NCBI RefSeq assembly: GCF_000008465.1
Contig: NC_006512.1
Location: forward strand, 480,001-512,000
Reading direction: 5' to 3'
DNA length: 32,000 nt
Source of the DNA: Idiomarina loihiensis L2TR
Lineage (GTDB): Bacteria > Pseudomonadota > Gammaproteobacteria > Enterobacterales > Alteromonadaceae
Part shown: positions 5,301-29,861 of the stretch, piece by piece
Layout: the number at the start of each line of letters is the position of its first letter
How positions within the stretch are numbered: position 1 is the stretch's first letter
Translations under genes and position numbers: made by a program
The notes under the pieces: generated by a model
The model's input: the letters and a program-made list of their open reading frames with translations, nothing else
Database searches by the model: none
What the model was told of the DNA's origin: nothing

Positions 5301-5490
5301 GCTGCGCGTCAGACCGAAAGCCATGACCGTGCTGACCATTATTGTCGGCCTACTACCGATAATGCTGGGCGGCGGTGTTGGTAACGAAGTCATGCAGCGC
5401 ATCGCCGCTCCTATGGTGGGTGGTATGGTACTGGCACCACTAATTTCCATGCTAGTGATCCCCGCCGTGTTTTATCTAGCGCGGAAATAA
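2389..5490 (+). CDS. cusA: Heavy-metal efflux RND permease, CusA type
   Basis: 1033 aa, collinear with E. coli CusA as I recall it. The three Cu/Ag-binding Met positions are conserved in context (MYMPT, APMTMIETS, RIEMLATG). C-terminal VRPKAMTV...AAPMVGGM block present. Confidence 0.9.
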   Translation: MLARIIEASIRNSWMVLLLFLGLAFWAWQSLQQTKLDAIPDLSEVQVIVKTNYPGQAPAVVEEQVTYPLSSVMLSVPKATSVRAFSFFGDSYVYVIFEDGTDPYWARSRVNEYLDQAQSQLPDQVRPELGPDASGIGWVYQYALVDETNQLNLGELTRLQNWFLKQELQSVQGVAEIATVGGMVETYQVVVQPEALHRYNLTLNQIKQSIQQANNEVGGSVVEMGEAEYMVRGLGYLKSIEDIRKIPLPLTSEQQGTVLLEEVADIRIGPQVRRGITELNGDGEVVGGIVVMRHGENALQTIAAVKDKLEELKQGLPEGVKVVPTYDRSNLIQASTDNLTTKLIEEMFFVAVVCILFLWHARSAVVAIVSLPLSVLFAVWIMNMLGISANIMSLGGIAIAIGALVDAAIVMIENTHKHLQNYQERHKIVAKGSARLKVVNEACREVGPSLFFSLLVITVSFVPVFVLQGQQGRLFEPLAYTKTLAMAAAAIIAVTLIPVLIALLVRGKIPAEEKNWLSRGLIALYRPLLAFTLKFPKTIIVLALLITASAWHPYKQLNYELMPPLHEGDLMYMPTTLPGISVESAGKLLQQTDKLIAAQPEVERVFGKVGRADTATDPAPMTMIETSITLKPESEWREGMTVDDIIAELDERVQIPGVTNAWVQPIRTRIEMLATGVKTPLAIKVSGSDFREIEKLATRIEDTLSEQDATGSVIAERSGGGRYIEIEPKLRQAARYGLTQADIHEHIQYAIGGANIATSVQGNERFPINLRYPREQRDHIEKLKTLPVKSASGQWLTLSDVADIRVTQGPAMLKSEDARLSSWVFIEPDKGVTVGDYITQVSGVMDKLEIPVGYNWSWTGQYKAMQQVESDLKEIIPLTLLVILLLLYMTFRSLPQALLVIGTLPLALTGSLWLIYLLDYNLSLAVIVGMIALAGVAAEFGVVMLLYLNNAWKAVAYDKNQLKAAVEEGALLRVRPKAMTVLTIIVGLLPIMLGGGVGNEVMQRIAAPMVGGMVLAPLISMLVIPAVFYLARK

Positions 5491-5496
5491 CGCGGA

Positions 5497-5523
5497 GTAG
5501 CCTGACATTTATGTCAGGTGAGG
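5497..5523 (+). repeat. REP unit (GTAG head + 18-nt hairpin), left half of an inverted REP doublet
   Basis: GTAGCCTGACATTTATGTCAGGTGAGG. Exact reverse complement lies at 5713-5738. Starts 7 nt after the cusA stop. Confidence 0.85.
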
Positions 5524-5673
5524 TGGAAGATAGCGAGCGCTGGAGGTTGCAGGAACCATTGAGGAGGACGCCCGTAAATACATCCCTGTAGGGCTTGGGC
5601 AGCGCCATCCATGGCGCCGCACACCTCCTCAATGGTTCGCCGCAACCGTCGGGCGCGCTCACTATCTGCCACC
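5522..5673 (-). repeat. Family-A structured repeat, copy A1 (nested between two REPs); strand given is the inferred core-sense strand
   Basis: Conserved core GACGCCCGTAAATACATCCCTGTAGGGCTTGGGCAGCGCCATCCATGGCGCCGCACAC. Flanked by self-complementary arms: GGTGGAAGATAGCGAGCGC...GAACCATTGAGGAGG pairs with CCTCCTCAATGGTTC...GCGCGCTCACTATCTGCCACC. Confidence 0.9.
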
Positions 5674-5712
5674 GCACCTGACGCAAACTGCACCGAGCTT
5701 TCCGCCCGGCAT

Positions 5713-5738
5713 CTCACCTGACATAAATGTCAGGCTAC
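5713..5738 (-). repeat. REP unit, right half of inverted REP doublet
   Basis: CTCACCTGACATAAATGTCAGGCTAC is the exact reverse complement of 5497-5522. A degenerate REP-like CACCTGACGCAAACTGCACC lies at about 5675-5695. Confidence 0.85.
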
Positions 5739-5779
5739 GTGCTGTGATCGTCACGCGCGCAATTCCCCCAAAATTAACG

Positions 5780-6658
5780 TCAGGCGAAACTTTCCCAAAT
5801 GGCATTAGCCGCCGGGCCTAACGTCCTGTTTGCGGAGCGCACTAGGTGAATTTCCAGACGCACTTGCTGGACGAATCCGGGAATGCTGATTTCTACCAGC
5901 TTGCCCTGCTCAAGGGCGTCCAGAGCAATGTGTTTAGGAATAATGCCCCAGCCAAAACCTGCCATTAGCAATTCAAACTGAGTGTTAACCTCATTTACCC
6001 TTATGCGCTGCTGGCTGGGCAGACGCAGTACTGCATCCAGATTAATGCCTATCTCCAGGTTTTGCGGCACCAGCATAGGCAGCTCTAATAAATCCTGGCG
6101 GCTTTGCGGCATACGACCAAACTCTTTCATTAGCGCAGTTGAAATCACAACCGTTAATTCAAACGGTGCTACCGGCAGGGTTTCAAAGTCGCCATATTGA
6201 CGAAATAAAGGCAGCCAGGGGCACAAAGCTAAGTCGGCACTGCCGTTATCTATACGCTTCAGCGCCCGCATTTGTGACTCGCCGTCTACGTGCAGTTCGG
6301 TAGTCGGGTATTGTTGTTGAATGTGCTGGATGCTGGGCACCCAAAGCTTACTGTCGCAGGTATGGTCATAGCATAGTGTCAGCAGGGGTTCGGCCCCATG
6401 TTTCAACTGTGTTGCCAGCGACTGGAGACGCTGTTGCTGACGCACCACTTCTTCTGCCTGGCGTAAAAAGTGTTGCCCCTGCTCGGTCAGTTCCAGTCGA
6501 TAGCCATCGCGGTTAAATAGAGCGAAACCCGCGTTCTCTTCCAGTTTTTTTAACGCCATGCTAACCGCGGACTGTGTGCGGTTGAGTTGCTCGGCTGTTT
6601 TTTGCAGACTACCGAGGTTAGCTACCGTGATCATCATTTTTAGGTGAGATAAATTCAT
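5780..6658 (-). CDS. LysR-family transcriptional regulator
   Basis: 292 aa. N-terminal wHTH (MITVANLGSLQKTAEQLNRTQSAVSMALKKLEE) followed by a LysR substrate-binding domain. Divergent from the RND adaptor/pump pair across an AT-rich 106-bp spacer. Confidence 0.85.
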   Translation of the reverse strand: MNLSHLKMMITVANLGSLQKTAEQLNRTQSAVSMALKKLEENAGFALFNRDGYRLELTEQGQHFLRQAEEVVRQQQRLQSLATQLKHGAEPLLTLCYDHTCDSKLWVPSIQHIQQQYPTTELHVDGESQMRALKRIDNGSADLALCPWLPLFRQYGDFETLPVAPFELTVVISTALMKEFGRMPQSRQDLLELPMLVPQNLEIGINLDAVLRLPSQQRIRVNEVNTQFELLMAGFGWGIIPKHIALDALEQGKLVEISIPGFVQQVRLEIHLVRSANRTLGPAANAIWESFA

Positions 6659-11026: not shown

Positions 11027-13615
11027 GTGCTTAAAGAATATCGTCAGCACGTAGAAGAGCGCGCCGCAGAAGGCATCCCTCCGAAGCCATTAAATGCCGA
11101 GCAAGTAGCCGATTTAGTGGAATTACTGAAAAATCCCCCAGCAGGCGAGGAAGACTTCCTGGTTGAGCTGCTGGCCGAGCGTGTACCGCCGGGCGTGGAT
11201 GAAGCAGCCTATGTTAAAGCAGGCTTTTTAAGCGCCGTTGTTAAGGGCGAAATTGAAAGTCCGGTTGTGAGTAAAGAATACGCAGTGAAGCTGTTGGGCA
11301 ATATGCACGGCGGTTACAACATCGTCACTTTGGTGGAATTGCTGGACGACTCTCAGCTGGCTGAACTGGCGGCAAAAGAACTGAAAGAAACCATCTTAAT
11401 GTTCGACGCTTTCCACGACGTGGAAGAGAAAATGAAAGCCGGTAATGCGCTGGCGAAAGAAGTGGTTGAATCCTGGGCCAATGCTGAATGGTTTACCAAC
11501 AGCGACGAGCTGGCTAAGTCCATTAAAGCAACTGTCTTTAAAGTGACTGGCGAAACCAATACCGATGATCTGTCTCCGGCACCAGATGCATGGTCTCGTC
11601 CGGACATTCCTTTGCATGCTAAAGCGATGTACAAAATGCCACGCGAAGGCATTACCGATGCGGGCAAGCAGATTGAAGAATTAAAAGAAAAAGGTCACCC
11701 GGTTGCCTTCGTTGGCGACGTAGTGGGTACCGGTTCTTCACGGAAATCAGCGACCAACTCGGTATTGTGGAACATCGGCGAAGACATGCCGGGCACACCG
11801 AACAAACGTGCCGGCGGTATCTGCATCGGTTCTAAAGTTGCGCCTATTTTCTTCAATACCATGAAAGACGCAGGTGCGTTGGTGTTTGAAGCCGACGTTG
11901 AAAAAATGAACATGGGCGATGTCATCACTATCTACCCATACGAAGGCAAAATCGAGAACGAAGCCGGCGAAATTATCGCTGAATACGATTATGCGTCCCG
12001 CGTCATTCTGGATGAAGTCCGTGCCGGTGGCCGTATTAACCTGATCATTGGTCGTGGCCTGACAGAAAAAGCACGTGAATCTCTGGGCATGGGTCCATCA
12101 GACTTATTCCGTAAGCCAGAGCAACCGGCAGACAGCGGTAAAGGTTTCTCGCTGGCGCAGAAGTTGGTCGGTAAAGCTTGTGGTATGGAAGGTGTTCGTC
12201 CGGGCGCTTATTGCGAACCTAAGATGACCACTGTCGGCTCTCAGGACACTACCGGTCCTATGACTCGTGACGAACTAAAAGACCTGGCATGCCTTGGTTT
12301 TAACTCAGACTTAGTTATGCAGTCGTTCTGCCACACCGCCGCTTATCCTAAGCCCGTTGACGTTGAAACTCAGCACACCTTGCCTGACTTTATCATGAAC
12401 CGTGGCGGCGTAAGTTTGCGTCCTGGCGACGGTATCATCCACAGCTGGTTGAACCGTATGTTGTTGCCAGACACAGTTGGTACTGGTGGCGATTCGCACA
12501 CGCGTTTCCCGCTGGGCATTTCATTCCCGGCAGGCTCTGGTCTGGTCGCGTTCGCTGCAGCTACCGGTGTTATGCCGCTGGATATGCCTGAATCTGTATT
12601 GGTGCGCTTTAAAGGTGAAATGCAGCCGGGTATCACCCTGCGTGACTTAGTTCATGCCATTCCTGCATTCGCTATCAAAGAAGGTCACCTGACCGTTGAT
12701 AAGCGTGGCAAGAAGAACATTTTCTCAGGTCGTATCTTAGAAATTGAAGGTCTTGATCACTTAACCGTTGAGCAGGCATTTGAATTGTCTGATGCTTCTG
12801 CTGAGCGTTCTGCTGCCGGTTGTACCATCGATTTGTCTGAAGAGTCGGTTGCCGAGTACCTGCGTTCAAACATCACTATGCTGCGTTGGATGATCAACGA
12901 AGGCTACGGCGATGCGCGTACGTTGGAGCGTCGTGCCCGTAAGATGGAAGAATGGTTAGAGAACCCGCAGCTAACGCGTGCCGACAAAGATGCCGACTAT
13001 TCTACGGTTATCGAAATTGACCTGAACGACATTAAAGAGCCTATCGTTTGCTGCCCGAACGACCCGGACGACGCGAAGTTCCTGAGCGAAGTTTCAGGTA
13101 ATAACGTTGATGAAGTCTTCATTGGTTCGTGCATGACCAACATTGGTCACTTCCGTGCGGCGGGTAAATTGTTAGAGAAAAACTCTGACCCATTAAATAC
13201 CCGTTTGTGGATTGCACCACCAACGAAAATGGACAAAGCGCAGCTGGAAGTTGAAGGGTATTACGACATTTATGAGCGTAATGGCGTTCGTACCGAAATG
13301 CCGGGTTGTTCACTGTGTATGGGTAACCAGGCACGGGTAGAACCGGGCGCAACGGTGCTGTCTACCTCAACCCGTAACTTCCCGAACCGTTTGGGTGATG
13401 GCGCTAACGTTTACCTGACTTCTGCAGAGCTTGCCGCTGTCGGTGCAATTGTTGGTCGTCTGCCAACACCGGAAGAATACCTGGAGTACGCACAGGACAT
13501 CAACTCAATGGCTGGCGAAGTCTATAAATACCTGAACTTCGACCAGATGGATGCCTTCCGCGACGCAGAAAAAGCGGCCAAGGAAAACATCATCCCAACC
13601 ATCAACGTGGCTTAA
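11027..13615 (+). CDS. acnB: Aconitate hydratase B / 2-methylisocitrate dehydratase
   Basis: 862 aa with a GTG start. Collinear with E. coli AcnB from MLxEYRxH to the end. Conserved blocks [48 protein letters not shown] and [11 protein letters not shown]. Confidence 0.95.
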
Positions 13616-13744
13616 TGAGTGCTTAGGTTGCAAGGACTCTTTACGAGGACGCCCGCAAGTACTTCCCTGTAGGGCTTGGGCAGCGCCATCCATGGCGCTG
13701 CACACCTCGTTAAGAGTCCTCGCAACCGTTGATCGCACTCATTA
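13613..13744 (-). repeat. Family-A structured repeat, copy A2; its first bases are the acnB stop codon
   Basis: Same core as A1 (GACGCCCGCAAGTACTTCCCTGTAGGGCTTGGGCAGCGCCATCCATGGCGCTGCACAC). Different but self-complementary arms: TAATGAGTGC/GCACTCATTA and AGGACTCTTTACGAGG/CCTCGTTAAGAGTCCT. Confidence 0.9.
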
Positions 13745-13754
13745 GCAATTTATA

Positions 13755-13777
13755 AAACCGCTTCGGCGGTTTTTTTG
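13755..13777 (+). terminator. Rho-independent terminator downstream of acnB and A2
   Basis: AAAACCGC-TTCG-GCGGTTTT stem-loop followed by a T-run (13770-13776). Confidence 0.75.
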
Positions 13778-13790
13778 TGTCCGATATTCA

Positions 13791-13816
13791 GTAGCCTGAT
13801 GTTCACATCAGGTGGG
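13791..13816 (+). repeat. Solitary REP unit
   Basis: GTAGCCTGATGTTCACATCAGGTGGG: GTAG head plus an 18-nt hairpin (CCTGATG-TTCA-CATCAGG). Confidence 0.8.
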
Positions 13817-13865
13817 ATACTGTCTCTTAGTGAGGAAAAAGAAAGATTAGCGCGTGCGTAAGAAA

Positions 13866-14027
13866 GGGGCAGGTTCTTCACTTATGAGCGTTATGAGTGT
13901 TGAGTACTTCTGTGGCGGAGTGTCGAAGGCCATGGAAGGCCTTCGTCAAGCCCTCATGGATGAGCTCGTAGCGTCTCCGTCACAGAAGTACTCAATGCTC
14001 AAGCGAAATAAGTGAAGAACCTGCCCC
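13866..14027 (+). repeat. Family-C structured repeat, copy C1 (about 162-nt long hairpin with a conserved core)
   Basis: GGGGCAGGTTCTTCACTT...AAGTGAAGAACCTGCCCC outer 18-bp stem. Inner stem of about 26 bp (3 G-T). Core GGAG-TGT-CGAAGGCC-ATGGAA-GGCCTTCG-TCAAGCCCT-CATGGATGAGCTCGTA-GCGTCTCC. Confidence 0.9.
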
Positions 14028-18444: not shown

Positions 18445-18650
18445 GCTTTCAGCAATCCGCTCTTGAAAATATTGGGGCGGGCCAGCATTGGCTGGCCATT
18501 GCAGGTTATCTTCCGAAAGACGCCTGCAAGTACGTCCCTGTAAGGCTTGGGCAGCGCCATCCTTGGCGCTGCACACTTTCTCCAGATAACCCACAATGGC
18601 GTATCGCCAATACTGACCACCCCCAATACTTCCACGCTATTTGCTGAAAG
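18445..18650 (-). repeat. Family-A structured repeat, copy A3 (divergent, longer arms); begins at the base after the mdh stop
   Basis: Core GACGCCTGCAAGTACGTCCCTGTAAGGCTTGGGCAGCGCCATCCTTGGCGCTGCACAC. Arms are unrelated in sequence to A1/A2/A4 but self-complementary: CTTTCAGCAA/TTGCTGAAAG, ATTGGGG/CCCCAAT, GGTTATCT/AGATAACC. Confidence 0.85.
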
Positions 18651-18663: not shown

Positions 18664-18748
18664 TGAGATGGTCCCCTCCCTCCTAAGCGGCATCGCAATG
18701 TGCCAATATAGAGGTTCAAGCTTCTATAGAACAGAGTGGAGAGGACCA

Positions 18749-19780
18749 ATGGCTATTGTAAACAGAATTGCCCTGGATTTGGCAAAGGATTTTATTCAGG
18801 TTTTGGCGCTGGATGAAAATGAGCAGGAAGTTTTTAATAAAAAACTGCGCAGCAATAAAGTGTTAGCGAAGCTGGCGACGCTGAGCCGTACGGATGACTG
18901 TGAAGTAGCGGTTGAGTCCTGCGGCATGAGTCATTACTGGCGCCGCGAATGTGAAAAGCTGGGTTATAAAACGGTGGCGTTGCCACCGCGTTTCGTCAAA
19001 GCGTACCTGCAGGGTGAGAAGAACGATGCGAATGACGCCCGGGCAATAGCCGAGGCGGCATCACGACCCAACCGTCAGACGGTCAGGCTGAAAAGCATTG
19101 AGCAGCAGGACTTAGCATTGATGGTCAATCAGCGGGAAGGCTTCGTGCAGACGAGAACGCAGTTCTCGAATAGGTTGCGGGGGCAACTGGCCGAATACGG
19201 CATTCTTTTACCGAAGCGAGTCGGTACGATATTACAGAGAGTACCGGAGGTACTGGAAGACGACAGCAATGCGCTGACGCTTCAGTCACGGGACCTCATC
19301 AACCGGCTCTATCAGATGCTGCGAGCGGTGGATGAAGAAGTTAAAGCGCTGGATAAGCACTTAGCGACACAGGCCGAAAGGAATGAAGACAGTCAGCGGC
19401 TGATGACCCTGCCGGGTATCGGACCGATAACAGCGACCTCGCTGCTGGCACTGATAGGTGATGTGAGTGAATTTAAACGCGGCCGCAACCTGTCGGAATA
19501 CCTGGGACTGGTACCACGGCAAAACAGCAGTGGCGGTAAAGACCGTTTAGGCGGTATTACCAAAAAAGGGAACACCAAACTCAGGACACTGCTGGTGCAT
19601 GGCGCCCGCTCGGCACTGCGGGTGGCACAACAGCGCCACGACAGGCTGAGCCTCTGGGCACAGGATGTCGCTAAACGCAGAGGCAACAACGTTGCAGCGG
19701 TGGCACTGGCTAACAAGCACGCCCGGATAATCTGGGCGATGTTAAAGAATAAAGAAGATTACCGGATGACTGCTGCTTAA
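18749..19780 (+). CDS. IS110-family (DEDD/RuvC-like + Tnp domain) transposase/recombinase
   Basis: Start at MAIVNRIALDLAKDF, with a GGAGAGG SD 5 nt upstream. The ORF-track start at 18668 reads through the terminal IR and is unlikely. Motifs: ALDLAK, VESCGMSHYW, KNDANDARAIAEA, LPGIGPITATSLLALIGD, VPRQNSSGGKDRLGGITKKGN. Confidence 0.9.
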   Translation: MAIVNRIALDLAKDFIQVLALDENEQEVFNKKLRSNKVLAKLATLSRTDDCEVAVESCGMSHYWRRECEKLGYKTVALPPRFVKAYLQGEKNDANDARAIAEAASRPNRQTVRLKSIEQQDLALMVNQREGFVQTRTQFSNRLRGQLAEYGILLPKRVGTILQRVPEVLEDDSNALTLQSRDLINRLYQMLRAVDEEVKALDKHLATQAERNEDSQRLMTLPGIGPITATSLLALIGDVSEFKRGRNLSEYLGLVPRQNSSGGKDRLGGITKKGNTKLRTLLVHGARSALRVAQQRHDRLSLWAQDVAKRRGNNVAAVALANKHARIIWAMLKNKEDYRMTAA

Positions 19781-20045
19781 CAGCATTCAGTAAAAGAGCA
19801 CAGCGAAGGTTCATTCCTTCCGGGAGTTGCAAACGTCAACAGGATGGTAAAATAGGGTAAACCGACGACAACTGAGACTGTTGAACGTCCGTACATAAAG
19901 TACGTTAGCCTGATAAGCCAGTTGTCGTGCGGAGTTCATCCAGGCCAGGTGCGCAAAGCGCGCACCATAAACAGGCCGTATATATGCGAGCGCCCCGACA
20001 TTTACCACGAGTTGCCGTTGCAAAACGGGAGGGGACCATATATGA
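19781..20045 (+). ncRNA. Candidate bridge/seek guide RNA region in the IS 3' non-coding end (target-binding module at 19862-19932)
   Basis: Stem 19862-19874/19919-19932 encloses an internal loop and hairpin 19890-19904. Loop side 1, TGAACGTC (19882-19889), is the reverse complement of the right flank GACGTTCA (20044-20051). Loop side 2, TAGCCTGAT (19906-19914), is identical to the left flank (18656-18664). Transcript ends and the donor-binding module are not resolved. Confidence 0.5.
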
Positions 20046-20046: not shown

Positions 20047-20100
20047 GTTCACGTCAGGAGTTATCTTTGGACTTTCCACCTGATGTGAATATCAGGCTAC
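20046..20100. repeat. Right fragment of the split REP plus its intact inverted partner REP (REP doublet)
   Basis: CGTTCACGTCAGG (20046-20058) ... CACCTGATGTGAATATCAGGCTAC (20077-20100), which is the reverse complement of GTAGCCTGATATTCACATCAGGTG. Confidence 0.8.
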
Positions 20101-20111
20101 GAAAATGGTTG

Positions 20112-20275
20112 GAGGGCAGGTTGCTCACTTGTGAGCGTTACGAGTGTTGATAGCTTCTGTAGCGGAGTGTCGAAGGCCAGGGATGGCCTTCGTCAAGCCC
20201 TCATGGATGAGCTCGTAGCGTCTCCGCTACAGAAGCTATCAATGCTCAAGCGAAACAAGTGAGCAATCTGCCCTC
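20112..20275 (+). repeat. Family-C structured repeat, copy C2
   Basis: Same architecture as C1, with compensatory arm changes: GGTTGCTCACTT/AAGTGAGCAATC and GATAGCTTCTGTAGCGGAG/CTCCGCTACAGAAGCTATC. Hairpin loop is AGGGAT. Confidence 0.9.
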
Positions 20276-20276
20276 T

Positions 20277-20337
20277 CCCAAGCCCTACAGGGAAGTACTT
20301 GGGGGCGTCCTCCGAAACAGAACCCGCTCCCCCAAGG
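20277..20337 (+). repeat. Partial family-A copy (core 3' half + one arm), opposite orientation to A1-A5, fused to the end of C2
   Basis: CCCAAGCCCTACAGGGAAGTACTTGGGGGCGTCCTCC... equals the reverse complement of the A core from GGGCTTGGG leftwards. Ends 7 nt before the ispB stop. Confidence 0.8.
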
Positions 20338-22199: not shown

Positions 22200-23415
<1,216 letters not shown>

Positions 23416-26751: not shown

Positions 26752-27896
26752 TGAGTGCATTAACTTCCGTATGGAAAAAAGAGTTCCGGGACGCTATTCG
26801 TGATAAACGTTCTGTTTTAGCGGCAATGTCCTATGCGTTTTTTGGCCCTTTATTAATGGCCGTAGCCTTCTTTTTCTTAATAACCCAACTGACCGACCCA
26901 GCAGACGTTGAAATTACCATTGAAGGCAAAGAAAATGCCCCTCAACTCGTTGAATTTTTGAACGAACGTGGTGTTGTTGCTAAAGAAGGGGAGTGGGCGA
27001 AAACCGAAACGCCAATAATATTGACCTTACCGCAAAACTGGCAGGAAAGTGTGAGTAAAGCCGAACCGGTGGAGGTAACATTACGCGCCGACTGGTCCGC
27101 ACAAAAACAGCAGACCGAAATTAAGCGTGTAGAGCAGGCCGTTCAGGCATACTCCAGTCAAATAGCGGCTTACCGTCTGACTTTACGGGGTGTGGATCCG
27201 CGTGTCGTGCAACCAATACAGTTACAAAAGCAAGACTTAGCAACCCGGGGCTCAAAAGCGGCCTTGATTATGGGCAGTGTGCTGGTATTTATTATCTTGT
27301 CTGTATTCTGGTCTGGTATGAATGTGGCTATTGATATCAGTGCTGGTGAGCGTGAACGTAACTCGCTGGAATTTTTGCTGAGTCAGCCGTTAAGCACCTG
27401 GGACATTGTTACCGGTAAAGCACTGACCGCAACGACCTTTTCATTGTTCGGGGCAATACTGTCACTGGTACTCATACCCATTATATTTGCCTACGTTCCA
27501 TTACACGAAATTGGTATGAACGTGAACTTTAGTGTGGGTATGATGCTACTAATGTTTGTTTTGCTGGTACCGCTAGCTTTGTTCGCGACCGCCCTGCAAT
27601 TGTTTGTGTCCTTTCGCGCGAAAAACTTCAAAGAAGCACAAACCTACATCAGCTTCTTATTGATCATTCCCATGGCAGCGTCATTCGGTGTCGAATTTGC
27701 ACGGCTTAAAAATCCAATTCTCTACTATCTCCCGCTAACCGGTCAGCATCAGGCTTTTCTGTCACTGATACGCGGTGAGAACGTGAATGTCATGGGAACG
27801 GTCATCAGCGCAATTGCCACCCTGGCAGCCGCTCTGCTGCTCATGAAATACATAGCCCGAATGCTCAAAAGCGAAAAAATCGTCTTCGGCCTGTAG
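26751..27896 (+). CDS. ABC-2 type transporter permease (NatB-like)
   Basis: 381 aa. N-terminal TM, a large extracytoplasmic loop, then 5 C-terminal TMs. Start overlaps the ATPase stop (TAATG). Confidence 0.8.
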   Translation: MSALTSVWKKEFRDAIRDKRSVLAAMSYAFFGPLLMAVAFFFLITQLTDPADVEITIEGKENAPQLVEFLNERGVVAKEGEWAKTETPIILTLPQNWQESVSKAEPVEVTLRADWSAQKQQTEIKRVEQAVQAYSSQIAAYRLTLRGVDPRVVQPIQLQKQDLATRGSKAALIMGSVLVFIILSVFWSGMNVAIDISAGERERNSLEFLLSQPLSTWDIVTGKALTATTFSLFGAILSLVLIPIIFAYVPLHEIGMNVNFSVGMMLLMFVLLVPLALFATALQLFVSFRAKNFKEAQTYISFLLIIPMAASFGVEFARLKNPILYYLPLTGQHQAFLSLIRGENVNVMGTVISAIATLAAALLLMKYIARMLKSEKIVFGL

Positions 27897-27903
27897 CGGG
27901 GCT

Positions 27904-28040
27904 GAATAGCGAGCGCTGAGGTTACAAGGGCCATTGTGGAGGACGCCCGTAAATACATCCCTGTAGGGCTTGGGCAGCGCCATCCATGGCGCTGCACACC
28001 TCCACAATAGCCCTGTGTAACCGTCGGCGCGCTCACTATC
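27904..28040 (-). repeat. Family-A structured repeat, copy A4
   Basis: Core identical to A1 except at 1 position. Arms GAATAGCGAGCGC...GGGCCATTGTGGAGG / CCTCCACAATAGCCC...GCGCGCTCACTATC. Starts 8 nt after the permease stop. Confidence 0.9.
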
Positions 28041-28089
28041 TTCCGCTTTAGTTAAGAAGCCACTTAAGCCGTGATGAGAGAGATTAGAA

Positions 28090-28250
28090 GGGCAGGCTGT
28101 TCACTTGTGAGCGTTACGAGTGTTGAAAGCCTCTGTGGCGGAGTGTCGAAGGCCATGGATGGCCTTCGTCAAGCTCTCATGGATGAGCTCGTCGCGTCTC
28201 CGTCATAGAGGCTTTCAATGCTCAAGCGAAGCAAGTGAGCAGCCTGCCCC
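28090..28250 (+). repeat. Family-C structured repeat, copy C3
   Basis: GGGCAGGCTGTTCACTT...AAGTGAGCAGCCTGCCCC. Inner arms GAAAGCCTCTGTGGCGGAG/CTCCGTCATAGAGGCTTTC. Ends 9 nt before the stop of the minus-strand oxidoreductase gene. Confidence 0.9.
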
Positions 28251-28259
28251 TGTCCCCCC

Positions 28260-29579
28260 TCAGTCGCGTAGGCGGCCGTAGTGGTAGTAGAGCCATTGGC
28301 CGAGGCGGCGGAAGCGTGGTAATGGAAAGGGCTTTAGTTTTGACTGGTAGTACGGTAGCTCGGGCAGGTTTTTTTCCATGGCGGCTTCTGCCAGTCTTTG
28401 ACCGGCCAGGGCGGTAAAGCCAACACCGGCGCCGCAGTAACCCATGCTGGCGTAGATATTATCTTTCACTTTGCCTACTCGCGGGTAATCGTCCAGTGAC
28501 ACACTGACCCAGCCACTCCAGAAATACTCCCACTTGTTCACTTCTCGCAGTTGCGGGAAAGTCTGGTGTAATGCCTGCAGTAAGCGTTTAGCATATATCG
28601 GCTTCTCTGCGCTTTTCCCTTGAATGGCACCACGACCACCAAACAATAAGCGGTTATCGGGCAGTAAGCGGAAGTAATACTTCAGGATGCGTGTATCCAT
28701 TATGGCGTATTGAGGTGAAAGCTTAATACTCTCAACCTGTTCGTTACTCAGAGGTGGGGTGGTAATAATGCTTGAGAGTACCGGTAGCGAGCGGCTGGCA
28801 AGCTCCGGCAACAGTTTCCCTGAGGTATAGCCATTAGAACAAACCAACAGCTTACGGGCGCGTACAGAGCCTTTGGCGGTTTGCAGATACACTCCTTTGC
28901 CGCCAAGTGACACGGCCTGAGTTACCGGGCAGTGTTCAACTAATTGCGCACCAGCGGCAGTTGCCCTTCGCGCGGTAGCTGCTGCTAACAAAATGGGGTT
29001 AAGGGTAAAACAATCAGTAAAGCGTAATGCGGCATGGGCCTGTGGGCTTGAAATAAGCCCCGAGAGTTGATTTTGGGTGAGCCATTCAACGGGTTGATTA
29101 AACTTTTTAAGCTGCTCATATTGTTGTTTCAATGGTGCCACGGCGCTGTTGCGGTGCGCTATTTTCAGGTAGCCACCGTTTTGGCGCTGGCACTGCGAAG
29201 GGCAATAACGCAAAGTTTCTTCAACCAGTTGCAGTGCCTTTTGATGTTCATCGGCAATGTCTTGCGCAATGTCAGCACCAAGGCGTTCAGCCCAGGCCGA
29301 CAAGCCCAGTCGGCCGGTACTTTTCATCACAAACCCGGCATTACGCGACGAACAACCCCAGGCCAGTTGGTTGGCTTCAAAAACTGCAACAGAATGCCCA
29401 TTTTCGGCCAGAACCCGAGCCGCATTTAACCCCGTATAACCCGCACCAATAACAGCAAATTCGACTTCCTCCGGCGCATCCACACACTCCGGAAACTCGG
29501 CCTGCGTATGCTGCTGCCAATAACTAGGCTCAGGAGCATCATGAGGCCCCGGAGGCGCATTAACCAAAGGATCATACAT
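28260..29579 (-). CDS. FAD-dependent oxidoreductase (PuuB/OrdL-like, DAO family)
   Basis: Start at MYDPLVNAPP, with an AGGTGG SD upstream. The 44 further N-terminal codons in the ORF track are a read-through of repeat A5. Dinucleotide-binding motif FAVIGAGYTGLNAARVLAENG. Overall layout resembles E. coli PuuB. Confidence 0.8.
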   Translation of the reverse strand: MYDPLVNAPPGPHDAPEPSYWQQHTQAEFPECVDAPEEVEFAVIGAGYTGLNAARVLAENGHSVAVFEANQLAWGCSSRNAGFVMKSTGRLGLSAWAERLGADIAQDIADEHQKALQLVEETLRYCPSQCQRQNGGYLKIAHRNSAVAPLKQQYEQLKKFNQPVEWLTQNQLSGLISSPQAHAALRFTDCFTLNPILLAAATARRATAAGAQLVEHCPVTQAVSLGGKGVYLQTAKGSVRARKLLVCSNGYTSGKLLPELASRSLPVLSSIITTPPLSNEQVESIKLSPQYAIMDTRILKYYFRLLPDNRLLFGGRGAIQGKSAEKPIYAKRLLQALHQTFPQLREVNKWEYFWSGWVSVSLDDYPRVGKVKDNIYASMGYCGAGVGFTALAGQRLAEAAMEKNLPELPYYQSKLKPFPLPRFRRLGQWLYYHYGRLRD

Positions 29580-29608
29580 AAACACCCACCTATAAAACGG
29601 AGAGGGAA

Positions 29609-29744
29609 GACAGCGAGCGCTGAGGTTACAAGGGCTATTGTGGAGGACGCCCGTGAATACATCCGTGTAGGGCTTGGGCAGCGCCATCCATGGCGCTGCA
29701 CACCTCCACAATAGCCCTATGTAACCGTTGGCGCGCTCACTATC
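29609..29744 (-). repeat. Family-A structured repeat, copy A5 (in the leader of the oxidoreductase gene)
   Basis: Core GACGCCCGTGAATACATCCGTGTAGGGCTTGGGCAGCGCCATCCATGGCGCTGCACAC. Arms GACAGCGAGCGC...GGGCTATTGTGGAGG / CCTCCACAATAGCCC...GCGCGCTCACTATC. Confidence 0.9.
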
Positions 29745-29749
29745 TCCCG

Positions 29750-29825
29750 CCTCATGGATGAGCTCGTCGCGTCTCCGCCACAGAGGCCTTCAATGCTCAA
29801 GCGAAACAAGTGAGCAGTCTGCCCC
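29750..29825 (+). repeat. Family-C half copy C4 (3' part of core + right arms only)
   Basis: CTCATGGATGAGCTCGTCGCGTCTCCGCCACAGAGGCCTTCAATGCTCAAGCGAAACAAGTGAGCAGTCTGCCCC aligns with the right half of C1-C3. Confidence 0.85.
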
Positions 29826-29856
29826 AAGCCCATGCAACCTCAGCGCTCGCTATTCG
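29822..29856 (+). repeat. Internally deleted partial family-A copy, opposite orientation to A1-A5, fused to C4
   Basis: CCCCAAGCCC-ATGCAACCTCAGCGCTCGCTATTC. This is the CAAGCCC core motif joined directly to the reverse complement of the A outer arm (GAATAGCGAGCGCTGAGGTTGCAT). Confidence 0.75.
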
Positions 29857-29861
29857 GAGCC

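Follow-up and report, generated by a model that had tools for sequence, protein, structure and literature searches.

Two hairpin elements between convergent genes

The window analysed here is a 32,000-nucleotide stretch of Idiomarina loihiensis L2TR (contig NC_006512.1, positions 480,001 to 512,000 of the forward strand), and all coordinates below are positions within it. The segment 27904–28250 sits between two convergent genes, one for an ABC-2 permease, which ends at 27896, and a minus-strand gene for a flavin adenine dinucleotide (FAD) oxidoreductase, which ends at 28260. It contains two long hairpin elements, A4 and C3, separated by a spacer of 42 nt. They are members of two repeat families, A and C, which an initial annotation of this DNA had joined into one superfamily. 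The strand carrying the core in its sense direction has GGA in its hairpin loops and is referred to as the GGA strand, the opposite one as the UCC strand. RNAfold gave −92.7 kcal/mol for 27895–28055 (A4) and −111.5 kcal/mol for 28083–28258 (C3).

Three covariance models were used: R1, from 29 C-type cores all taken from other genomes; R2, from 46 A-type cores; and R3, a general model. The features of the segment, with the GGA strand and the model scores, are as follows.

27908–28046, minus: A4, family A element, a long imperfect hairpin (repeat family D1)
27931–28008, minus: A4 core with 10 bp of the closing stem P1 (R2 105.6, R1 59.1, R3 94.1 bits)
27974–27995, minus: A4 hairpin P2, loop AUGGAU at 27982–27987
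27954–27965, minus: A4 hairpin P3, loop GGGA at 27958–27961
28047–28088: spacer between the head-to-head A4 and C3, unconserved
28089–28249, plus: C3, family C element, a long imperfect hairpin (repeat family D3)
28134–28209, plus: C3 core with 10 bp of P1 (R1 101, R2 55.9, R3 77.2 bits)
28144–28146, plus: UGU of C3
28147–28168, plus: C3 hairpin P2, loop AUGGAU at 28155–28160
28176–28187, plus: C3 hairpin P3, loop UGGA at 28180–28183
28194–28198, plus: GCGUC of C3

The A and C cores are homologous

The reverse complement of 27938–28004 reads GGAGGTGT-GCAGCGCC-ATGGAT-GGCGCTGC-CCAAGCCCT-ACAGGGATGTATTTACGG-GCGTCCTCC and the plus strand of 28140–28203 reads GGAG-TGT-CGAAGGCC-ATGGAT-GGCCTTCG-TCAAGCTCT-CATGGATGAGCTCGTC-GCGTCTCC, so that the core strings quoted in the initial annotation are base-for-base correct. 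A repeat search returned a cross-family inverted repeat, I6, pairing 27965–27999 with 28143–28177. The pattern GCCATGGATGGC-N6-CAAGCYCT, with 20 positions and at most 2 mismatches, found exactly the 8 full copies in the window. The outer stems of A and C also have GTGAGCG...TTAC and TCA(A)GCG segments in common.

R1 scored the three C copies of the window at 101–104 bits and also recovered all five A copies, at full length on the minus strand, at 46.1–59.4 bits (E from about 3e-10 to 8e-14). Its best match outside the elements and partial copies was 13.6 bits. R2 found the three C copies on the plus strand at 55.9–57.9 bits, and R3 all eight full copies at 77–94 bits. Each single-family model thus recovers the other family, in the opposite orientation and far above background. 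The reciprocal test that the initial annotation had proposed for its superfamily is passed both ways (R1 46–59 bits, R2 56–58 bits). Intermediate forms, whose search it had also suggested, were found as well: related genomes have at least 15 P2 stems, and their P3/J3 variants grade from A-type to C-type.

The hairpins of both families are rich in GC, and a short motif like ATGGAT can turn up repeatedly by chance, but a chance or convergent likeness of two unrelated palindromes is refuted by the pattern shuffles (8 matches against 0.00 expected in 100 shuffles) and the reciprocal covariance models (46–59 bits against a background of at most 14 bits), with graded intermediate subfamilies present in related genomes and the homology taking in P3 and the GC clamp as well as stretches of the outer stems.

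Core architecture and covariation

Other genomes were surveyed by an exact-pattern scan using one genome per species, which gave at least 120 loci. Loci from other genomes compared with the window carry L-numbers, and the counts below refer to the loci listed.

The core runs in the order P1, YGU, P2, NCAA, a GC-closed arm with P3, GU and the return strand of P1, and forms a three-way junction. P1 is the long imperfect outer hairpin, of 12 to about 55 bp. P2 has 8 bp, with GCC-GGC as its top three pairs and the loop AUGGAU, and P3 is ACA-NGGA-YGU nested in a GC/GC or GCCC/GGGC helix. The features which the initial annotation listed as shared are correct; what it overlooked is P3 itself, a homologous second hairpin following CAAGCCCT. 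The segment after CAAGCCCU is this hairpin in both families, UACA-GGGA-UGUA in A and CUCA-UGGA-UGAG in C, each with an NGGA loop.

Covariation was assessed on 102 distinct copies from Idiomarina, Marinobacter and relatives, aligned to the model. Paired bases occupied 92.7% of the cells, both sides had changed in 18 of the 26 pairs, and the covariation score was 0.598 as against at most 0.124 for controls with partners slid by 1–3 columns. At least 15 different P2 stem sequences occur, every one of them paired. The picture of conserved loops on swapped, still paired stems is thus borne out. The invariant positions are loops and junctions: G12-U13, GCC-A(U)GGAU-GGC, CAAGC, CA-N-GGA-Y-G, U57 and GCGU. 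The P2 loop is AUGGAU in 88% of copies, and the P3 loop region A-N-GGA-Y is AUGGAU in C and AGGGAU in A.

Relation to YPAL and other known elements

The YPAL (RU-2) elements of Yersinia (De Gregorio et al. 2006; Delihas 2007-2008) resemble A and C in being non-coding, intergenic long stem-loops of about 130–170 bp, in lying near gene 3' ends and in showing filled/empty polymorphism. The 168-nt RU-2/YPAL printed by Delihas contains GU-CCGCGCC-AAGGAU-GGCGCGG-CUCGAGCC-UACAUGGAUGUA-UUUACGGCGUC (PMC2759123), and its core has the order, and for the most part the sequence, of that of A and C: GU, CCGCGCC-AAGGAU-GGCGCGG, CUCGAGCC, UACA-UGGA-UGUA, UUUACGGCGUC. A hidden Markov model (HMM) of the core, built from Idiomarina and Marinobacter copies only, matched the published Y. 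pestis RU-2 (PMC2759123, Table 1b) at 45.7 bits. R3 matched YPAL copies on Yersinia plasmids over its full length at 56.3 bits and a 75%-identical copy on an E. coli plasmid at 45.7 bits; Klebsiella and Citrobacter plasmids gave identical matches. The cores of A, C and YPAL are homologous.

We consider it probable, at roughly 80%, that A and C are diverged subfamilies of one small non-coding palindromic intergenic repeat family, the Idiomarina/Marinobacter counterpart of the Yersinia YPAL (RU-2) miniature insertion elements. A and C are new, Rfam-invisible subfamilies of a known element type and not a new kind of system. They differ from YPAL in hosts (Idiomarina, Marinobacter and Pseudohongiellaceae as against Yersinia and Pectobacterium), their outer stems are unrelated to it in sequence, and on the A/C side many subfamilies with fully swapped P1 and P2 stems co-exist. 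The available text of the YPAL papers mentions neither a head-to-head pairing rule nor CsrA-type loops.

Two results weigh against this assignment. None of the elements in the window or in 18 other loci reaches the Rfam cut-off of TwoAYGGAY or Ysr224. Further, no clean duplicated flank was visible in pairs of filled and empty sites, the genomes concerned being only 75–90% identical and too diverged for a target-site duplication to stand out; for YPAL, target duplications of 3–26 bp and insertion at or beside dyad symmetry are reported (PMC2229807).

Two observations concern the enterobacterial copies. The 75%-identical YPAL-like copy is carried on conjugative plasmids of E. coli, Klebsiella, Citrobacter and Shigella, and in L121 a ryfA RNA gene (179.5 bits) lies directly beside a YPAL copy.

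At curated thresholds Rfam gave no match in the window or in the 18 other loci. Genome annotation will therefore leave copies unlabelled or call their transcripts novel small RNAs (sRNAs), because the Rfam thresholds miss all of them. The Ysr224 model (RF02770, cut-off 70) scored the Yersinia plasmid YPAL copies at 133.9 bits on the minus strand, the GGA strand being plus, and genuine YPAL copies in general at 72–134 bits. Since its matches to these copies lie on the other strand, Ysr224 is the complement of YPAL; it differs from A and C in that it models the UCC strand, and of the element only about 107 nt. At relaxed thresholds it scored the window A copies at 24.6–28 bits on the plus strand.

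TwoAYGGAY (RF01731, cut-off 43) is placed in Rfam clan CL00106 together with rsmX. It matched the minus strand of A4 and A5 over its full length below threshold, at 28.5 and 31.7 bits, and gave no match to the C copies at E ≤10. It was described by Weinberg et al. (2010) with two terminal AYGGAY loops; its P1 is 'often very large', with 24 base pairs given as an example (PMC2864571 supplement). Its alignment opens with several copies that share one genome, that of Psychromonas ingrahamii. TwoAYGGAY shares the architecture of A, C and YPAL, with two AYGGAY-type loops, a long P1, AAG after hairpin 1 and GCGU before P1. It differs in that the sequence-level alignment covers the P3 hairpin only and its second hairpin arm is much longer.

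The repetitive extragenic palindromic (REP) sequences, with their BIME and REPIN arrangements, are likewise intergenic palindromes at gene 3' ends with compensated stems and inverted two-subtype pairs (the Y and Z REPs of BIMEs). They differ in being single hairpins of 20–40 bp tagged by GTAG (in the class definition GTAG or CGTC), where A and C are 140–165 bp with a three-way junction. A and C as REPs or BIMEs were rejected on this size and junction, and true REPs form a separate family in the window. In the literature library searched, no paper was found to connect YPAL with any of CsrA, TwoAYGGAY or Ysr224.

Copies in the window

The window holds five full A, three full C, two partial A and one partial C copies, all of them intergenic, a density of about 1 copy per 4 kb. 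The elements are 109–161 bp long as delimited by the repeat families, with folds of −81 to −115 kcal/mol for the stretches of 146–176 nt around them. The window is syntenic with many Idiomarina contigs at 82–96% identity. Beyond A4 and C3 the features are as follows, again with the GGA strand.

5533–5671, minus, core 5556–5633: A1, family A, inside the REP doublet 5497–5519 / 5717–5738
13614–13752, minus, core 13637–13714: A2, family A, between the acnB-like stop codon (13615) and the hairpin 13752–13780
13752–13780: terminator-like hairpin AAAACCGCTTCGGCGGTTTTTTT between A2 and C1, bordered by an A run and, at its other end, a T run, as read from the sequence
13866–14026, plus, core 13911–13986: C1, family C, head-to-head partner of A2
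18499–18607, minus, core 18508–18585: A3, family A variant with loop AAGGAU, downstream of an mdh-like gene
20113–20273, plus, core 20158–20233: C2, family C
20277–20336, plus: partial A-like copy, 3' half beginning at CCCAAGCCCU (partial nhmmer match, model positions 32–75)
29612–29750, minus, core 29635–29712: A5, family A, 96% identical to A4
29751–29825, plus: partial C, 3' half, followed by an A-type 3' tail at 29826–29857 (plus)

The partial A-like copy at 20277–20336 has full-length counterparts at the orthologous site of L042, L058, L056, L061, L030 and L067. The partial C at 29751 arose by a deletion of about 125 bp: L094 and L101 have a full C copy there. A cleavage site at CAAGCCCU marked by the partial copies was considered and rejected, as the orthologues show ordinary deletions with different end points. 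Also rejected was a composite A-spacer-C unit: the spacer is homologous only among orthologous loci and with the 29612–29857 pair, and it evolves at the neutral rate.

The near-identical A-C modules 27908–28250 and 29612–29857 are direct repeats flanking a single oxidoreductase gene, 28260–29711, and the deletion of about 125 bp that yielded the partial C belongs to the second of them. Over 13657–13776 there is a weak rsmX-like match of 25.8 bits, the cut-off being 56.

Distribution and turnover

The hosts of the loci, at least 120 in number, are Idiomarina, Marinobacter, Pseudohongiellaceae and gammaproteobacterial metagenome-assembled genomes; five matches were chance hits without the rest of the core. 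An nhmmer search with the core HMM gave at least 215 matches, 198 of them full, in the 120 loci listed plus the window. Nearly all were intergenic, and the DNA they occupy almost always faces the 3' ends of genes. A core-pattern scan of viral contigs gave no match. If the density of the window holds genome-wide, there would be several hundred copies per genome.

Unpaired copies lay in convergent (39), tandem (50) and divergent (7) intergenic regions, and the median distance from the 3' end of the element to the gene beyond it was 80 nt. Individual insertions are found within a GGGGCGG/CCGCCCC dyad and, for A1, within a REP doublet. A terminator scan showed no general enrichment of terminator-like sites adjoining copies.

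Orthologous sites in Idiomarina and Marinobacter are filled in some genomes and empty in others; L037 and L043 are filled and L054 and L107 empty, and one site is filled in 10 Marinobacter loci and empty in L010, L022, L069 and L110. The element at 5490–5780 (IG1) is inverted at the orthologous site in L114 and L089, and the whole A-C module at 27896–28260 (IG5) in L094, L081 and L101. Such opposite orientation at one site is either in-situ inversion or re-insertion. The elements invert, decay and are replaced in situ.

The orthologue of 28089–28249 in L016 keeps the C-type outer stem intact with the whole core swapped for an inverted REP doublet. Outer stem and core are thus separable modules, since the C stem is retained there without the C core. 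In L004 (the reverse complement of 660–960), compared with L042 4860–5000, the short C-type copy that follows mdh lacks precisely its P2 (CGCTCGA|CGCTCC), a clean hairpin-sized deletion.

The A core is 99.3% identical in four orthologous copies, while flanking third codon positions are 70–78% and the spacer 70% identical. Either purifying selection or frequent gene conversion accounts for this.

Orientation of the copies

The initial annotation had placed all A cores of the window on the minus strand and all C cores and both partial A copies on the plus strand. This is correct as a description of the window, but orientation is not a property of the family: other loci, among them the orthologous locus of other species, have C(-)A(+) arrangements. 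Neighbouring copies stand head-to-head, their sense 5' ends facing, in 39 of 40 pairs and at all 12 sites after orthologues were collapsed. The rule holds in tandem and convergent intergenic regions alike, and the partners are nearly always of different subfamilies, with spacers of 0–50 nt. The pattern of A minus and C plus is therefore a matter of geometry and not of family identity, given these orientation rules and the C(-)A(+) arrangements elsewhere.

Unpaired copies show a trend to point their 3' end toward the nearest stop codon (70 against 19 in raw counts, 13 against 6 once sites are clustered). A dyad target in the middle of head-to-head pairs found no support, as the spacers differ between loci and are not hairpin-rich (mean z −0.36). 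None of the mechanisms tested explains the head-to-head arrangement.

What the core may do

A YPAL-type lifestyle is well supported for A and C. As reported for YPAL (PMC2229807), it is that of a non-autonomous mobile hairpin which inserts close to gene 3' ends and becomes a 3' untranslated region (3'-UTR) hairpin in the transcript of the gene. To judge from the YPAL literature and the positions found here, the elements would spread by transposition into or beside dyad-symmetric, terminator-like targets just past stop codons. Co-transcribed with the upstream gene, they would form a stable 3'-UTR hairpin able to alter mRNA decay; the places of A2 and C1 between stop codons and the terminator-like hairpin 13752–13780 would agree with such co-transcription. 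For YPAL, co-transcription with upstream genes is reported, under the word 'co-translated' (PMC2229807).

The GGA strand is favoured as the folded strand. It gives the more stable fold in 147 of 182 copies, and G-U wobbles in the outer stems outnumber A-C mismatches when that strand is read (452 against 247). In P2 of some subfamilies there are internal loops of tandem G-A or GGA/GGA, which become pyrimidine mismatches on the opposite strand.

As to why the core is kept, we tentatively propose that one strand, as RNA, may present two CsrA-type sites, CA-NGGA-NG, in two loops 23–25 nt apart. RNA of the GGA strand would then capture a CsrA dimer whenever it is transcribed. Two CANGGANG motifs 23–25 nt apart, both in predicted loops, are found in 98 of the 102 distinct copies, and 91 of the 102 fit [AU]CANGGANG[UA]. 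CsrA-binding RNAs as a class are characterised by at least two GGA motifs in hairpin loops, fitting A/U-CA-NGGA-NG-U/A at dimer-like spacing, and the elements share this feature. The consensus obtained for CsrA by systematic evolution of ligands by exponential enrichment is RUACARGGAUGU (PMC4347634). A role as CsrA binder or sponge has been suggested for TwoAYGGAY (PMC4333381).

Several observations speak against a CsrA role. The GGA strand is mostly antisense to the nearest gene transcribing toward the element (123 against 44 raw; 13 against 6 for unpaired copies with orthologous sites collapsed). At 13614–14026, A2 and C1 lie between stop codon and the 13752–13780 hairpin in antisense; because that hairpin lies between them, each has the UCC orientation within the 3' UTR of the gene nearest to it. 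The catalogued Yersinia RNA Ysr224 is also the UCC strand. No promoter-like or terminator-like site adjoins the A4/C3 pair. G-U pairs make up only 0–3% in P1 and P2, a scarcity that fits DNA-level or two-strand pairing as well as RNA. Finally, the invariant junction bases (GU, CAAGC, GCGU) are not explained by CsrA. The GGA loops are intact in 98–100% of copies in both orientation classes, in a sample that is ascertainment-biased. Decay of these loops in copies sharing the orientation of the upstream gene was looked for and not seen.

The main alternative to CsrA capture is a DNA-level fold acting in cis as the site for a mobilising enzyme. The elements would then be mobile DNA only, their conserved single-stranded fold being read by a transposase or recombinase (e.g. 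RAYT or an IS200-type HUH enzyme), with the CsrA look incidental and any RNA effects side effects of a big 3'-UTR hairpin. In favour of this are a dispersal resembling that of miniature inverted-repeat transposable elements, with filled and empty sites, and the nesting of elements and REP doublets, each within the other. There are hardly any G-U pairs despite the many pairs changed on both sides, the invariant junction bases are unneeded by CsrA, and the GGA strand is usually not the mRNA strand. The head-to-head polarity (39/40 pairs, 12/12 clusters) points to polar insertion and not to selection on transcripts. However, no associated transposase gene was found, and the sole transposase of the window, of the IS110 family (18668–19780), belongs to a separate element inserted in a REP. 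To our knowledge no transposase is known for YPAL either. Core identity of 99% at orthologous sites exceeds what a passive signal needs, unless gene conversion is frequent, and it is difficult to regard as incidental that both loops fit the CsrA consensus in 98 of the 102 copies. We rate CsrA capture as less likely than not and the DNA-only account as slightly less likely still.

It is very improbable that the elements are free-standing sRNA genes of the CsrB/Rsm type, each with its own promoter and acting as a CsrA sponge. TwoAYGGAY, itself a proposed CsrA sponge (PMC4333381), is in the same clan as rsmX, and each element has two high-quality GGA hairpins. CsrB, CsrC and RsmX/Y/Z do have GGA motifs in hairpin loops fitting the CsrA/RsmE consensus, but A and C differ in having two sites, no promoter or terminator of their own, a high copy number and the behaviour of mobile elements. 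Known CsrA sponges carry many sites, as against two GGA sites in each of the 8 full copies in 32 kb. The rating is low because promoters and terminators are missing (none resembling either was seen in 27700–28450, around A4/C3) and because there are only two sites per copy. In addition, the spacers of 0–50 nt between head-to-head partners are unconserved, the sense 3' ends are without U-tracts, and the elements are freely lost, inverted and truncated between species.

Returning to CsrA capture, an extended form of it can be put forward as an unlikely but far-reaching idea: YPAL, Ysr224, TwoAYGGAY, A and C might all be one widespread class of mobile hairpin that carries as its conserved payload a high-affinity CsrA trap with two sites. 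The trap would stay silent in the neighbouring gene's mRNA and be exposed only by wrong-way transcription into the gene 3' end. If this were true, head-to-head pairs would be two-way, CsrA-dependent insulators against read-through and antisense transcription. Pervasive antisense transcription would then be tied to the pool of free CsrA by the several hundred copies in each genome, should the density of the window hold genome-wide.

Neighbouring mobile elements and chromosome context

Between A3 and C2 lies a complete insertion sequence (IS) of the IS110 family at 18666–20040, with an open reading frame at 18668–19780 (Pfam DEDD_Tnp_IS110 and Transposase_20). Its ends are AGATGGTCCCCTCCC...GGGAGGGGACCATAT, the right end having about 260 nt of non-coding DNA, a layout which we take to resemble that of the IS1111 subgroup. 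It is inserted in a REP (GTAGCCTGATG / IS / ATGACGTTCACGTCAGG), and L030, L056, L061 and L067 lack it at the orthologous site. Its transposase was rejected as a mobiliser of A and C, being part of a separate IS in a REP with no core match in the non-coding end.

The separate REP family has the form GTAGCCTGAY-N6-RTCAGG and occurs at 5497–5519, 5717–5738, 13791–13812, 20079–20100, 23360–23382 and 23394–23415. Two REP sites are inverted doublets, one of which brackets A1.

The cumulative GC skew peaks near 28000, where genes also switch from mostly plus to mostly minus. This position could be the replication terminus; a search of the window found no dif-like site at ≤8 mismatches near the switch.

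Significance

YPAL/RU-2, Ysr224 and TwoAYGGAY, which are kept apart in databases, would describe one element type, and that type now extends to the marine Idiomarina and Marinobacter. The plentiful and fully compensated stem swaps provide unusually rich natural covariation data for a three-way junction. The strict head-to-head rule, the CsrA-type loops on what is mostly the non-mRNA strand and the 99% identical cores pose concrete, testable puzzles of how such elements spread and are maintained.

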